The notes under the pieces were generated by a model. That model was given only the letters and a program-made list of their open reading frames with translations. It searched no databases and was not told the DNA's origin. From a virus (Duplodnaviria > Heunggongvirae > Uroviricota > Caudoviricetes), in IMG/VR virus record IMGVR_UViG_2778261667_000003: DNA of 4,132 nucleotides. One strand, 5' to 3'. Position numbers and translations under genes: made by a program. This document shows positions 1 through 3,336 of the stretch, piece by piece (position 1 is the first letter of the stretch; each line of letters opens with the position of its first letter).

Positions 1-124
1 AATTCATTGATTGTACATTTTGATTAGATTGGTTCACCGCTCGACGTAACGAGACAAATCCTCAAGGATTTCGTATGATTGCCATGTCATAGTTATGGCT
101 GCGCAATACAGGTGGCTAAAAGCC

Positions 125-149
125 CCCGTTGACTCACGGTGTTCCAACC
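125..149 (+). repeat. Copy 1 of a 25-nt module CCC-N-TTGAC-N7-GTTCCAACC
   Basis: Same module recurs at 685-709 with identical spacing; 19 of 25 positions identical, including the 9-mer GTTCCAACC and the 5-mer TTGAC. Confidence 0.6.
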
Positions 150-157
150 TGTATTGC
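129..157 (+). promoter_or_regulatory. Candidate sigma70-like promoter: TTGACT (129-134), 17-nt spacer, TATTGC (152-157). The spacer contains the GTTCCAACC box (141-149).
   Basis: Read directly: good -35, weak -10, correct spacing, about 55 nt upstream of an RBS-bearing small ORF. No transcription data. Confidence 0.3.
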
Positions 158-211
158 GCCGCCACCAGACCGTGGAACAGTCGATGGCGGCTTCGAAAGC
201 AAGGAGTCACT

Positions 212-307
212 ATGAACAGTTACAAACTTTTCCCATCACTCACCGTCTACTCACGCAATAACCTGCGTTCTTTGCTCCCATCACAACTGGAGGGAGTATC
301 AAAATGA
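212..307 (+). CDS. Small ORF, 31 aa (MNSYKLFPSLTVYSRNNLRSLLPSQLEGVSK), hypothetical. Its stop TGA (305-307) overlaps the next ORF's ATG (304-306) in an ATGA arrangement.
   Basis: AAGGAG (201-206) sits 5 nt upstream of ATG 212. The track's longer version (95-307) starts at an ATG with no Shine-Dalgarno and would span the promoter-like module, so the shorter start is preferred. No recognisable domain. Confidence 0.35.
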   Translation: MNSYKLFPSLTVYSRNNLRSLLPSQLEGVSK

Positions 308-471
308 CCGTTCGCTACCTCAACTTTCAAATCCAGAACATTACTGGCGGTTGCTATGACTGGTTTGTCACTCTCGGAAAAGAAGTGATCACCGGGAAGC
401 TGGATGAAGTGAAAGCTAAAGCAATGGCCTACGCCTGCAAGCAAGCCCGGAAGAAATCTGCCAAAGCATAA
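304..471 (+). CDS. Small hypothetical protein, 55 aa (MTVRYLNFQIQNITGGCYDWFVTLGKEVITGKLDEVKAKAMAYACKQARKKSAKA), lysine-rich basic C-terminus
   Basis: GGAGGGAG (289-296) sits 7 nt upstream of ATG 304; stop TAA 469-471. Below the 60-aa cutoff of the ORF track, so I translated it by hand. Family not recognised. Confidence 0.55.
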   Translation: MTVRYLNFQIQNITGGCYDWFVTLGKEVITGKLDEVKAKAMAYACKQARKKSAKA

Positions 472-482
472 AATACTGACTG

Positions 483-512
483 TTGCGCCCTGGCATTATC
501 GTGGGGTATATT
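483..512 (+). promoter_or_regulatory. Weak candidate promoter: TTGCGC (483-488), 18-nt spacer, TATATT (507-512), which could drive a short transcript ending at the 576-598 terminator
   Basis: Read directly: good -10, poor -35. Speculative. Confidence 0.2.
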
Positions 513-518
513 TCTACG

Positions 519-598
519 GCACCTTAGAAAAACGGGTGCCGGGATTGGAACCCCGGATAATGTCAAAGGCGACACAGACGCCGAAAGCGTCTTTTTTT
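519..598 (+). ncRNA. Candidate small RNA or processed 3' UTR (about 80 nt) carrying hairpin B with loop AUUGGAAC and ending at an intrinsic terminator
   Basis: Non-coding interval bounded by a possible promoter (483-512) and a strong terminator (576-598). Contains a GC-clamped hairpin whose loop has a YUNR-like UUGG motif. No homolog identified; ends are guesses. Confidence 0.25.
539..556 (+). other. Hairpin B: stem CCGGG/CCCGG (539-543 with 552-556), 8-nt loop ATTGGAAC (544-551)
   Basis: Perfect 5-bp all-GC stem. The loop's 7-nt core TTGGAAC is the reverse complement of the core of the GTTCCAACC boxes at 141-149 and 701-709. Confidence 0.5.
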
Positions 599-603
599 GT
601 GTC
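571..603 (+). terminator. Rho-independent terminator: stem AGACGC/GCGTCT (576-581 with 587-592), loop CGAAA, then T-run 593-598; flanked by an outer inverted repeat GACAC/GTGTC (571-575 with 599-603)
   Basis: Canonical GC-rich hairpin followed by a run of T on the + strand. It lies after the small-ORF operon and hairpin B. Confidence 0.7.
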
Positions 604-684
604 ATGCCATCGCACAGCCATACGTAGCGTTTAGCTCAGAGATCAATGGTAGTGCTGGCTGGGCTGCCGAAAGGCAGGCCGGTT

Positions 685-709
685 CCCTTTGACGCCGGTA
701 GTTCCAACC
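685..709 (+). repeat. Copy 2 of the module CCC-N-TTGAC-N7-GTTCCAACC
   Basis: Direct repeat of 125-149, lying about 75 bp upstream of the Icd-like gene start. Confidence 0.6.
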
Positions 710-724
710 CAGTCAGTGCTACCG
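696..724 (+). other. Hairpin C: stem CGGTAG/CTACCG (696-701 with 719-724), 17-nt loop containing TTCCAACC
   Basis: Perfect 6-bp stem. Its loop is complementary to the loops of hairpins B and B'. Confidence 0.4.
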
Positions 725-728
725 CCAT

Positions 729-744
729 TGAGATTGGAACCTCA
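729..744 (+). other. Hairpin B': stem TGAG/CTCA (729-732 with 741-744), 8-nt loop ATTGGAAC (733-740), identical to the loop of hairpin B
   Basis: Same loop on a different stem sequence, which is covariation-like support for a conserved stem-loop. The stem is only 4 bp, so it is weak alone. Confidence 0.4.
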
Positions 745-763: not shown

Positions 764-783
764 AGTCAAAGGAGGCTGCCAAT

Positions 784-999
784 ATGGCTACTATCCCTAC
801 CCCAACTCATTCTGAATTTATCTGGCGTTTCTATTCCTGCCAAAAACACCTCTATATCTGCGTAATGGCTGCTACCGAAGCAGAGGCGCGCTCATACCTT
901 CCCGAAGAACCCTGCATTTTTGCTGCTCGCTTCACCCTTGATGCGATGGAGATCCTCAATTACTGGAATCTGCCGATGAACTGCGTGGAGGTGCACTGA
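784..999 (+). CDS. Small protein, 71 aa, resembling phage P4-type 'host cell division inhibitor Icd-like' proteins
   Basis: Strong RBS AAAGGAGG (768-775) 8 nt upstream of ATG 784. The sequence has FIWRF, ATEAEAR and FAARF motifs that I recall from Icd-like proteins of P4-like prophages; this is recollection, not an alignment. Stop TGA 997-999 overlaps the next ATG (TGATG). Confidence 0.6.
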   Translation: MATIPTPTHSEFIWRFYSCQKHLYICVMAATEAEARSYLPEEPCIFAARFTLDAMEILNYWNLPMNCVEVH

Positions 1000-1622
1000 T
1001 GAATCTGTCCATCTCTCAAAAAGCGACAATGACCAGCATTGAGATCGCGGAACTGGTAGGTAAGCGCCCTGATAACGTTAAACGCACCATTGAACACCTA
1101 GCGGAACGGGGCGTAATATCTTTTCCTCAAATTGAGGAAAAGCCCACCGCAGGCCGCCCGGCGAGCTATTACGTCTTCGAAGGCGAGCAAGGCAAGCGCG
1201 ATAGCATTATTGTCGTCGCGCAGCTCTCTCCGGAATTCACCGCCCGGCTGGTGGACCGCTGGCGCGAACTGGAGAATGCCAGGGGACCGTTAAAATCAAA
1301 AGCCGAAATCCTGGCCGAAATGGCGCAAATGCATCTTGAGCATGAACGCCGGATCAACGCCGTTAATGCCCAGGTAGCCGAAGTATCGGCACAAGTGTCC
1401 AAAGTCGCTGAAACCGTCGAGCAGATCAAGAAAGGCAATATTCCGGAAGGCTACATTGGCTATCGCCAGTTAGCGGCGAAATGCGGCCTGACCGAAGCCA
1501 AATGTCGCAACCTGGTCAACGCTTACCGGATCCCCACCGATACGCATGAGTTTTTAACTCCCGATGGTTTGCTTGCGAGACGCTCCATTGTGGCCCTAGC
1601 CCCCCTTCCGGAAAGCCTTTAA
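999..1622 (+). CDS. Rha-family phage regulatory protein, 207 aa: N-terminal Rha-like domain, central predicted coiled coil, short C-terminal segment with a possible helix-turn-helix
   Basis: GGAGG (987-991) 7 nt upstream of ATG 999. N-terminal SIEIAELVGKRPDNVKRTIEHL matches the conserved core of the phage Rha regulatory domain from memory. Residues around 120-150 (VNAQVAEVSAQVSKVAETVEQIKKG) look like a heptad-type helix, and GYRQLAAKCGLTEAKCRNLVNAY is HTH-like. Stop TAA 1620-1622. Confidence 0.8.
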   Translation: MNLSISQKATMTSIEIAELVGKRPDNVKRTIEHLAERGVISFPQIEEKPTAGRPASYYVFEGEQGKRDSIIVVAQLSPEFTARLVDRWRELENARGPLKSKAEILAEMAQMHLEHERRINAVNAQVAEVSAQVSKVAETVEQIKKGNIPEGYIGYRQLAAKCGLTEAKCRNLVNAYRIPTDTHEFLTPDGLLARRSIVALAPLPESL

Positions 1623-1629
1623 GCAGGTT

Positions 1630-1926
1630 ATGTCGGAGGCCGAACCACGTAATAAACGCTGGTATCATCCAAAAATGGGCCTCTTTCAGGCAATCAACCA
1701 TCCTTTACCGGAACTCCCAAAAGATAATCTGTCACTGCATACAGCCAGAGAGAAGATCAGAAGTGGATATGCAACGGTATGCCGTCGCGCATCATGGTCT
1801 GAAGGTGTATGGGTATGGCCCGAAGGTGGATCAAGAAAGCACTGGCGCACTATCCGGGATGGGAAAATCCATGCTATTGATTTAGCGCCAGAGGATATGG
1901 CTGCTATGGACTGGATTGTTAGTTAA
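1630..1926 (+). CDS. Small hypothetical protein, 98 aa, with a CRRASW ... EDMAAMDW pattern typical of a small phage/bacterial domain of unknown function
   Basis: ATG 1630 lies 8 nt after the Rha stop, suggesting coupling, but the upstream AGCAGG is too close to be a good Shine-Dalgarno. The R-R-x-S-W and DxxAxDW-I/V motifs resemble a DUF family (possibly DUF2829; the number is from memory and uncertain). Stop TAA 1924-1926. Confidence 0.5.
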   Translation: MSEAEPRNKRWYHPKMGLFQAINHPLPELPKDNLSLHTAREKIRSGYATVCRRASWSEGVWVWPEGGSRKHWRTIRDGKIHAIDLAPEDMAAMDWIVS

Positions 1927-2061: not shown

Positions 2062-2454
2062 TTAAAACTCGCCTGCGCGCTGTTTTTCAAGCACAGATTT
2101 AACATTTGGCGCTTTACCTTCAAAAGAATGGAAAGTGCCACATTTTTCTGTCTTCACCTCGCGCAGAGCTTCGCCATCGGCGTTCTGCCATTGATGGGAT
2201 AATGTCATATCACCGCGAGAAGGAACATCAAGCGAGTACTGCGTGTAGGTTCCCCCCATCTCCGCATACTCCTGGAACACATAGCTCATTACGTCAGATT
2301 CAGTTTTCTGATGCGCGTTATCGACCTTATTCCCATTCAGAAATATGGCATCCGGATAGATTTTTATATCAAACTGACCGCACTTAACTTGTAAATTTCC
2401 AGCACTCGCGATCAAAGGGAAAGACGCCAGTAAAGCAATAGCCAATCTTTTCAA
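2062..2454 (-). CDS. Secreted periplasmic protein, 130 aa, with a PliC/MliC-like fold pattern (lysozyme-inhibitor family), two Cys
   Basis: TTG start at 2452-2454 with GGAGG 5 nt upstream on the - strand. N-terminal signal peptide MKRLAIALLASFPLIASA with an ASA cleavage motif. Mature part has one Cys near the N-terminus (KCGQF) and one near the C-terminus (EKCGTF), with a W-x-x-x-D-G-E-A segment reminiscent of the MliC/PliC W-x-K-G-D-E-A motif. The SGSGA inhibitory motif is not evident, so function is uncertain. Stop TAA at 2062-2064. Confidence 0.65.
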   Translation of the reverse strand: MKRLAIALLASFPLIASAGNLQVKCGQFDIKIYPDAIFLNGNKVDNAHQKTESDVMSYVFQEYAEMGGTYTQYSLDVPSRGDMTLSHQWQNADGEALREVKTEKCGTFHSFEGKAPNVKSVLEKQRAGEF

Positions 2455-2474
2455 TTCTGCCTCCGTTGCGTAAC

Positions 2475-3098
2475 TTATTGACCGTGCTTTTTACACCATT
2501 GCTCTGCCATTTGTTTGGCCAAAGGTCCAGCCACTGCACTGTATTCTGCTGTTTTGCTTTGCACACATGATGCAGATGGTTTTTTATTGCGCTGCTCGGT
2601 TAGTTGGCGCTCATAAGCCATCATGCTATCGAACCCGGCAACATCACTCTGGCGAAGCATTCCCTTTTTAACCAAAAATTGCTGCCCCTCGGGCACCAAA
2701 GCAAGCATAAAAAGCGGTTGCAATAACTCACCTAACCCTTGCTGGCGATACACTTCGAATTGCTGCCATCCCTGACTTAATCTGGCAAGAGTATCTTTTG
2801 TTGAATAACCTGTTTTTGTTATAGCTTTGTCCGTCAGATACGCTGTATATGCAAAAACGCAAAAGTCAGATTTACCAATAAACTGAGTTCCAACTGGCCG
2901 TAATGGAATGCCCTCCCTCTTGCAAAAGTCCATAATTGCCGCTTGTGAATGATCCCCACCAGCGTTATTCATAACCTGCTGCCCTGCCCTGAATTGTGCG
3001 GGTAACGCAGTTGCATTGGCCATATTAACAGATACGCATCCCAACATAGCCGCGAGCGCGGTCCCTAAAACCCTTAACTTCACTACACCGTCCTTCAT
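2475..3098 (-). CDS. Predicted lipoprotein/exported protein, 207 aa, function unknown; first gene of a two-gene - strand operon
   Basis: N-terminus MKDGVVKLRVLGTALAAMLGC has a positively charged n-region, a hydrophobic core and a lipobox-like MLGC (Cys 21). ATG 3096-3098 has no clear Shine-Dalgarno; an in-frame GTG at 3081-3083 is preceded by AAGGA at 7 nt, so the true start may be 15 nt downstream. Stop TAA 2475-2477, 20 nt before the next gene's RBS. Confidence 0.7.
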   Translation of the reverse strand: MKDGVVKLRVLGTALAAMLGCVSVNMANATALPAQFRAGQQVMNNAGGDHSQAAIMDFCKREGIPLRPVGTQFIGKSDFCVFAYTAYLTDKAITKTGYSTKDTLARLSQGWQQFEVYRQQGLGELLQPLFMLALVPEGQQFLVKKGMLRQSDVAGFDSMMAYERQLTEQRNKKPSASCVQSKTAEYSAVAGPLAKQMAEQWCKKHGQ

Positions 3099-3311
3099 GT
3101 AAACAAAATGAGGTTTTATGTTATAAAAACTATCAACTACATCAACATGATTTAGGCCAAGTTTCGGTCAAATAATAAAATCCTCAAAAAGTGGTTGACA
3201 CTATTCTGGAAATCACAAACTGCACATAATCCATCGCGCTAACGGCTCCCGTTGAAGGTTCTTTTGACGATTAACTTTCAGCCGAAGCGCGGTAGGGAGT
3301 CACGCCAAAGC

Positions 3312-3336
3312 AGGCCGCCATGTGCGGCCTTTTTTT
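3312..3336 (+). terminator. Strong rho-independent terminator: stem AGGCCGC/GCGGCCT (3312-3318 with 3324-3330), loop CATGT, T-run 3330-3336
   Basis: Perfect 7-bp GC-rich stem followed by 7 T on the + strand. It lies only 27 nt upstream of the ATG of the next gene, with the RBS in between. Confidence 0.75.

Follow-up and report, generated by a model that had tools for sequence, protein, structure and literature searches.

A repeated 25-nt module as the probable recognition core of two C4-type antisense RNAs in the immI-like region of a D6-like phage-plasmid

What is the role of a 25-nucleotide (nt) sequence that occurs twice within a few hundred nucleotides, in the same orientation and with the same internal spacing? 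The question arises in a stretch of 4,132 nt of caudoviral DNA (IMG/VR record IMGVR_UViG_2778261667_000003), here called the window, in which CCCGTTGACTCACGGTGTTCCAACC (positions 125-149, + strand) recurs as CCCTTTGACGCCGGTAGTTCCAACC (685-709, + strand). The original prediction, made from the letters of the window, described the two copies as sharing 19 of 25 positions with a fixed distance between a TTGAC pentamer and the 9-mer GTTCCAACC, and direct reading of both copies bears this out. It explained them mainly as a DNA element. The present analysis indicates that the module is the recognition core of two related C4-type antisense RNAs in series, and very probably the locus consists of two C4-type antisense RNA cassettes, one behind the other, in the immI-like region of a D6-like phage-plasmid, with the module as the recognition part of each.

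The recurrence had been judged unlikely to arise by chance, and this proved correct: a degenerate form of the 25-mer finds exactly the two copies in the window, compared to 0.01 matches expected from 200 shuffles. With at most one mismatch, GTTCCAACC gives five matches against 0.75 expected, including both exact copies and two sites of the reverse complement TTGGAAC (exact sites at 545-551 and 734-740). Plasmid II of Escherichia coli RL465 (89.7 kb), the closest complete relative, contains the 9-mer three times (0.65 expected), and two of the three sites lie in its counterparts of the two RNA genes. By simple arithmetic, an E. coli chromosome should contain any given 9-mer about 35 times, so that its commonness in the host genome, proposed earlier as a refutation, is a weak test. 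Identity of the 9-mer between the copies is not general: phage D6 has GTTCCAGCC in copy 1 and GTCTCAACC in copy 2, while copy 2 in other relatives reads AGACCAACT. When aligned to the C4 model (Rfam RF01695), both copies occupy the same columns, i.e. the loop and 3' arm of hairpin 2, a single-stranded stretch, and the first bases of the 3' arm of the closing helix; across this part of the module the family consensus is ...CCGGUuUgCcAACCC.... The hairpin-2 loop element is referred to as a' and the single-stranded element as b', the letters being assigned by analogy with P1.

The window is an immI-like (secondary immunity) region of a D6-like phage-plasmid. Positions 1-2000 match E. coli plasmids of about 90 kb at about 93% identity and phage D6 at 87%, and the best match of positions 60-800 is RL465 plasmid II (97.6%). 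Gene order in the matching records is ref, two small open reading frames (ORFs), an icd-like gene, a Rha/Ant antirepressor gene and mat.

Copy 2 lies within a canonical c4 gene, with the following features.

519..597, + strand: isrK-like RNA (RF01394, 62.7 bits against a gathering score of 50) carrying target set 1, i.e. b1, TTGGAAC (545-551), in a hairpin loop, and a1, GTCAAAGG (562-569)
576-592 plus T run, + strand: intrinsic terminator of the isrK-like RNA
642..729, + strand: C4 antisense RNA 2 (RF01695, 77.1 bits, E 1.6e-14, model positions 1-87 of 87)
685..709, + strand: module copy 2, comprising the a' box CCTTTGAC (686-693, hairpin-2 loop), the 3' arm of hairpin 2, the b' box GTTCCAA (701-707) and the start of the closing helix
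734..740, + strand: target b2, TTGGAAC, in the icd leader
765..774, + strand: target a2, GTCAAAGG (765-772), overlapping the icd Shine-Dalgarno sequence AAGGAGG (768-774)

The score of RNA 2 is well above the RF01695 gathering score of 45. It folds into the C4 architecture with a minimum free energy of -46.5 kcal/mol (z -5.0), and so does its upstream counterpart (RNA 1, described below) with -36.2 kcal/mol (z -5.7). RNA 2 is located, as a C4 RNA should be, 5' of an icd-like ORF (784-999) and a Rha/Ant gene (999-1926). An alignment of 10 sequences, nine of them distinct, was used for covariation. The three helices of RNA 2 show 98.6%, 100% and 100% pairing across the distinct sequences, and 8, 4 and 1 base pairs, respectively, have changed on both sides.

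The boxes of RNA 2 have exact complements at both target sets, in the isrK-like RNA and in the icd leader. Between a'/b' and a2/b2 all 135 of 135 alignment cells are paired, and 9 of 15 pairs have changed on both sides (five of seven for b2 and four of eight for a2, each 100% paired across the nine distinct sequences). This covariation score was reached by none of 500 shuffles, and slid controls gave 22-53% pairing. The upstream targets a1/b1 gave the same outcome (135/135 paired, 9/15 compensatory). Overall, seven box combinations could be distinguished among D6-like, P1-like, Stx-phage and other plasmid loci, four of which occur in D6-like elements (CCTTTGAC/GTTCCAA, CCTTTTGC/GTTCCAA, CCTTTTGC/GTCTCAA and CCTTTGAC/AGACCAA, given as a'/b'). 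Both target sets carry the matching complements in all D6-like combinations, and across the seven combinations the targets are always complementary or G·U-compatible. Where a target is imperfect, the change is always a transition and a G·U wobble remains: TTGGTCT for TTGGCCT, GTCTAAGG for GTCCAAGG, AATCGAGG for AATCAAGG and GATTAAGG for GATCAAGG. That all target mismatches are G·U-compatible on the transcribed strand makes sense for pairing between RNAs and not for a DNA operator. The suggestion that the modules and the TTGGAAC sites could be RNA target boxes was right in linking them functionally as reverse complements at the RNA level, but it had the roles reversed: the 25-mers belong to the antisense regulator, and TTGGAAC and GTCAAAGG are the targets.

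The element upstream of RNA 2 scores above the isrK gathering threshold, has boxes covarying with RNA 2 and ends in a terminator; a weak match to c4-a1b1 (RF03163, 22.4 bits) was also found at 506-559. By eye, a sequence TTGCGC-18-TATATT can be read at 483-512, which would set the transcription start near 519, where the isrK model begins; it fails the consensus scan, and is possibly the equivalent of the promoter driving isrK/c4 in Gifsy-1 and P1. A 39-residue ORF at 646-765 corresponds to a 120-nt coding sequence annotated in RefSeq as 'ash family protein' in relatives. It lies over the gene for the C4 RNA and probably does not encode a protein. In another element (L009, IMGVR_UViG_2579778873_000001) a precise deletion between the two TTGGAAC boxes (at 2690-2830) has removed the isrK terminator and the whole of C4 RNA 2, and the icd start codon of the same element is ATC instead of ATG. 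This would be expected if unrepressed icd is harmful, in what is one case only.

Copy 1 belongs to a more divergent RNA, the surroundings of which contain the following features.

51..79, + strand: promoter-like site GAGACA-17-TATGAT (9/12 matches)
91..169, + strand: C4-like antisense RNA 1, with closing helix 96-99/161-164 plus 101-113/147-159, hairpin 1 (114-124), hairpin 2 (126-139) and 3' tail GCCACCA
125..149, + strand: module copy 1, comprising hairpin 2 (stem 126-129/136-139; loop TGACTC, 130-135, the a' box), the b' box TGTTCCA (140-146) and the first 3 nt of the closing-helix 3' arm
173..179, + strand: candidate target b0, TGGAACA, the 7-nt Watson-Crick complement of the b' box of RNA 1
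201..211, + strand: Shine-Dalgarno sequence AAGGAG (201-206) with candidate target a0, GAGTCA (204-209), the complement of the 6-nt hairpin-2 loop of RNA 1

All 87 positions of the RF01695 model align to RNA 1, with 38.6 bits and an E-value of 5.5e-5 (39.5-40.2 bits in relatives), and its fold, as mentioned above, has the C4 architecture. In the closing helix, pairing reaches 94.1% (33-53% in slid controls) and 7 of the 17 pairs have changed on both sides; the inner hairpins are conserved without compensatory change. Among 36 D6-like loci, the 113-146 core, b0 and the Shine-Dalgarno sequence with a0 have no variable column at all. In the same loci 34% of columns vary in the promoter region, 50% in the transcript leader, 28% in the ORF remnant and 26% in the following ORF for a 55-residue protein (orf55). 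The complementarity of the candidate targets exceeds that in shuffled leaders (p 0.004 for b0 and p 0.003 for a0), and both complements jointly were found in none of 20,000 leader shuffles. The spacing between b0 and a0 is 31 nt, which compares to 31 nt in cassette 2 (734 to 765) and 30 nt in a third C4 locus of the relative plasmid.

The promoter scan covered the + strand of 1-1000, where the site at 51-79 was the only one found. Its -10 box and spacing are kept in relatives, with TATTAT, TATCAT or TAATAT, and judging from the sequence it would start transcription about 10 nt 5' of RNA 1. Both RNAs end in sequences that resemble RNase P-processed 3' ends, namely GCCACCA (159-165) in RNA 1 and CCGCCA (719-724) in RNA 2, cf. 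RCCA (PMC5499578); this is a resemblance in sequence only. Energies of the short duplexes, when compared to shuffles, were too weak to discriminate and are used descriptively. An alternative a-target, GTCGATGG (182-189), had the best duplex energy (-18.6 kcal/mol), but was rejected, as it changes in RL465-type and E. fergusonii elements while a' stays fixed; it would also require hairpin 2 to be opened. A hairpin presenting b0 in its loop (158-164/186-192) showed 44% pairing as assigned, versus 76% when slid by -1.

The downstream part of cassette 1 consists of two small ORFs.

212..307, + strand: 31-codon leader ORF, an icd-like remnant, the stop codon of which overlaps the next start codon (ATGA)
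304..471, + strand: 55-residue ORF of unknown function (phrog_7786)

The 55-residue ORF is probably translationally coupled to the leader ORF. A full Icd-like gene of 61 residues occupies the position of the leader ORF in E. fergusonii, Shigella and Enterobacter relatives, from which it follows that cassette 1 is an old c4-icd unit in which icd has decayed in the window. RNA 1 therefore has the placement typical of C4 RNAs through the icd-like gene directly 3' of it in relatives, and cassette 1 is without an antirepressor gene of its own. Cassette 1 and its ORFs are also present in elements that lack cassette 2 (L005, L006, L029, L030, L032, L080, L083). The most distant version was found in two Enterobacter plasmids, pJBIWA008_2 and p60214CZ_1 (L080 and L083, 1340-1910), with the order ref, a promoter-like AAGACA-17-TATCAT, C4-like RNA, two CTGGAAC(A) sites, the 61-residue Icd-like gene, an orf55 homologue and mat. 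Their RNA has a 15-bp closing helix of different sequence that still pairs, and a hairpin-2 loop of 11 nt; the b' box is TGTTCCAG, to which the two CTGGAAC(A) sites in the leader match over 7-8 nt.

A tblastn search with the Enterobacter homologue of the 55-residue protein identified 119 plasmids, all from Escherichia, Salmonella, Shigella or Enterobacter, and those inspected are D6-like. Scanning genome contigs for the 55-residue protein gave no matches, nor did a tblastn search of phages with the 61-residue Icd-like protein. Protein and pattern scans of viral contigs returned D6-like contigs with a near-identical RNA 1 (in one, a single change in the hairpin-2 stem) and three unrelated pattern matches, and new diversity of RNA 1 came only from the Enterobacter plasmids.

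Several observations weigh against two working cassettes. The score of RNA 1 stays below the RF01695 gathering score, so that by the cut-off of the family it would not be included, and its Enterobacter homologue had no Rfam C4 match at E<0.1. In elements from Escherichia, Salmonella and Shigella the boxes and candidate targets of RNA 1 never vary; the columns are invariant or changed on one side, and give no covariation signal. Pairing of a' with the Shine-Dalgarno region in Enterobacter (6 bp) is found only in a slipped register, for which a rough estimate of the chance probability is about 0.15. The closing helix of D6-type copies of RNA 1 contains a U·U mismatch, and the hairpin-2 loop has only 6 nt, making the a' interaction short (6 bp). 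In cassette 2, the antirepressor gene is frameshifted, and its output in this element may be reduced to icd. Considering both sides, the sequence evidence suggests that RNA 1 is a divergent C4-like paralogue, probably functional, that stands outside the curated family.

The proposal from which the analysis started was that TTGAC serves as a -35 box, with copy 1 in the spacer of a promoter, and that GTTCCAACC and TTGGAAC form a palindromic operator for the Rha-family protein or a small ORF product. The boxes are indeed reverse complements of nearby sites, operator half-sites would covary in the same manner, and TTGACT-17-TATTGC is legible by eye at 129-157. However, neither TTGAC is used by any promoter-like site in the scan, the single site being upstream of copy 1, and in Enterobacter the would-be -35 and -10 hexamers of copy 1 are both replaced while pairing of the RNA helix stays. 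The operator fares no better: the boxes lie within strongly covarying helices of a curated RNA family, all elements are on one strand, every imperfect target follows the G·U rule that is a signature of RNA pairing, and the distance between partner sites, 30-160 nt, is not that of operator half-sites. The Rha/Ant family, moreover, is known for antirepressors and not for operator-binding repressors (PMC8198154). The operator consensus of P1 C1, ATTGCTCTAATAAATTT, had no match in a search allowing up to 3 mismatches. We consider a DNA element to be hardly credible as an explanation of the module.

A more serious alternative, although in our opinion an unlikely one, is that copy 1 is a relic C4 gene with no antisense role, which is conserved due to a function in cis (as a 5' structure or RNase P site of the orf55 mRNA) or to recent ancestry. 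The sub-threshold score of RNA 1, the reduction of the downstream icd to 31 codons in the window, the U·U mismatch in many copies and the lack of covariation between boxes and candidate targets would all fit a relic. It does not readily account for a 34-nt core and two candidate targets without variable columns amidst regions varying at 26-50% of columns, nor for complementarity to the leader above chance. In Enterobacter, furthermore, the helix has been fully rebuilt by compensatory changes and the b' pairing has been lengthened to 8 bp and duplicated, and cassette 1 persists without cassette 2. The same persistence argues against copy 1 acting mainly on cassette 2 in a single circuit, with RNA 1 adding its effect on the targets in the isrK-like RNA and the icd leader or being titrated by them, an arrangement suggested by the fit of GUUCCA in its b' box to the UUGGAAC targets, by the 9-mer shared in the window and in RL465-type elements, and by predicted duplexes of -8.6 to -10.2 kcal/mol of this b' box with isrK and leader 2. 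This match is not conserved, as copy 1 keeps GTTCCA(A/G)CC whereas cassette 2 has GTCTCAA or AGACCAA in other D6-like elements; neither GTCAAAGG nor GCAAAAGG suits the a' box of RNA 1 (z about 0.2-0.3), and a GTTCCAA cassette 2 is found in P1-like IncY plasmids without copy 1. Cross-regulation as the main task of copy 1 thus appears quite improbable, more so than a relic, and two antisense RNAs with separate targets remain our preferred reading.

Why, then, do two similar copies adjoin? Only 74 of 146 aligned columns agree between the cassettes (about 51%), and conservation is best in the 25-nt module. Within the 9-mer, CCAACC is family-wide, being part of the RF01695 consensus, and the preceding GTT is a specificity position, which happens to coincide in the window and differs in D6 and other relatives. 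Positions 417-741 are about 90-94% identical to P1-like phages and plasmids, e.g. RCS47 (about 91.5%), whereas positions 60-416 were found only in D6-like elements. Together with the persistence of copy 1 without cassette 2, and of the GTTCCAA type of cassette 2 in P1-like IncY plasmids without copy 1, this distribution points most readily to a P1-like isrK-c4-icd-ant cassette having recombined in behind a resident cassette, and not to local tandem duplication or a shared operator.

We propose the following working model. In cassette 2 (519-999 onward), the C4 RNA would be cut out of the operon transcript, by analogy with P1/P7. In the icd leader, UUGGAAC would be bound by the b' box GUUCCAA and GUCAAAGG by the a' box CCUUUGAC. 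The pairing is predicted to hide the ribosome-binding site of icd and so to block its translation, and thereby, through polarity or coupling, expression of the downstream antirepressor. The isrK-like RNA, with an identical second target pair, may compete for or titrate the C4 RNA as a decoy (anti-antisense), and the box sequences would set the immunity type. Cassette 1 (51-471), with its promoter, RNA 1, a leader containing UGGAACA and the Shine-Dalgarno-overlapping GAGUCA, the decayed icd and the coupled 55-residue ORF, would be an older, diverged copy of the same device, in which RNA 1 presumably represses translation of the leader ORF and the 55-residue ORF in a likewise manner. The literature is the source for processing by RNase P, for translational repression and immunity, and for isrK as a decoy; the RNA family and structure, the box-target covariation of copy 2, and the helix covariation, conservation and above-chance complementarity of copy 1 were established here. 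Full repression of ant in the c4-icd-ant operon requires the C4 RNA (PMC8198154), and the substrates of RNase P include C4 and P4 CI (PMC5499578). In Gifsy-1, IsrK binds the downstream 'orf45' region, which is conserved at the nucleotide level and processed to an RNA of about 80 nt, and translation of the antirepressor operon is activated (PMC4825925).

Among the closest known systems is the immI c4 locus of P1/P7. RNA 2 shares its architecture (77 bits), the order target pair, c4, target pair, icd, ant, with one target over the icd ribosome-binding site, and boxes that vary together with their targets, as in the heteroimmunity of P1 and P7. Different from P1/P7, the host element is a D6-like one, in which ref lies upstream of the region and mat downstream of it; the canonical cassette is preceded by another, diverged C4 cassette, and the antirepressor is a frameshifted Rha-domain protein. 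In addition, the closest relative plasmid has a further c4-icd-Rha locus adjoining its lytic replication gene. This locus (RL465 plasmid II, L041; 3890-5074, - strand) encodes a third C4 RNA, scoring 69.6 bits. Beside it are a full match to c4-a1b1 (55.9 bits) and the second icd-like and Rha genes of the plasmid; the boxes of this RNA, CGTAAG and CTGTCAA, have matching targets on both sides and differ from those in the window. Hence, D6-like elements carry three C4-type modules, which agrees with a second antisense-RNA/icd region remarked on in a D6-like plasmid (PMC6799933). It is conceivable, but in our view rather doubtful, that D6-like elements run several orthogonal C4-type channels (three in the closest complete relative), with RNA 1 as a distinct subfamily that controls the 55-residue protein instead of an antirepressor, and with the isrK-like decoy able to titrate both RNAs, and so to couple the two channels, where the b box is shared, as in the window.

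The CI immunity RNA of P4, in which seqB pairs with seqA and seqC, acts by premature termination of transcription and not primarily by blocking a ribosome-binding site, and to our knowledge it is not followed by icd or ant. Positions 578-741 of the window align to the P4 immunity region at 72.7%; CI belongs to the same RNA family, its gene has target copies to either side, and the RNA is a substrate of RNase P (PMC5499578). The IsrK/orf45 (STnc1160)/anrP region of the Salmonella prophage Gifsy-1 is alike in having a short terminated RNA complementary to a conserved downstream region, with an antirepressor gene after it (PMC4825925). Its downstream region is described as orf45 and IsrK as an activator, whereas the partner in the window is a clear C4 RNA, an icd gene intervenes and the decoy or activator role of the isrK-like RNA is a putative one. 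The c4-a1b1 element (RF03163), the upstream target element of C4 RNAs, matches the window weakly; the isrK model fits the element in the window better, and cassette 1 is without an upstream target element.

The mechanism of C4-type RNAs is known from work in the 1990s on P1/P7 and P4, and the understanding of how these RNAs act is therefore unchanged by our findings. The novelty is modest, and lies in the unannotated, divergent copy 1 and in the tandem arrangement. For annotation, what appears to be a duplicated promoter or operator box is the recognition core of two antisense RNAs, and the RefSeq 'ash family protein' coding sequence at this location probably overlies an RNA gene. A diverged subfamily, placed at the head of a conserved small operon in D6-like phage-plasmids, escapes the Rfam C4 model. 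The box sequences would offer a direct read-out of the immunity type, and D6-like elements have types in common with P1-like plasmids. These types bear on superinfection exclusion among phage-plasmids, which have been reported as carriers of resistance genes (bioRxiv 10.1101/2024.02.02.574330).

Downstream of the RNA genes, cassette 2 continues with two protein-coding genes.

784..999, + strand: icd-like gene, 71 residues (phrog_1426, E 3.7e-41; homologues are annotated as host cell division inhibitor Icd-like protein)
999..1926, + strand: antirepressor gene with Rha N-terminal domain and Ant (Pfam Phage_pRha; phrog_63 at positions 124-307 and 378-431)

The antirepressor gene is split into ORFs of 207 and 98 residues by a 1-nt insertion near 1598, compared to an Ant protein of 313 residues in D6; among the E. 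coli plasmids of the 93% group, at least one has the corresponding gene marked as a pseudogene in RefSeq. On the - strand, 2062-3098 encodes ORFs of 130 residues (phrog_13864) and 207 residues (phrog_12786), both of unknown function. This pair stands where phage D6 has pmgF/orf80/simB, and is also present in pTB423 and in E. fergusonii elements. Finally, a G+C-rich hairpin, GGCCGC...GCGGCC, followed by a T run (3311-3336), is located about 30 nt 5' of the mat start codon (3364) and resembles a terminator.

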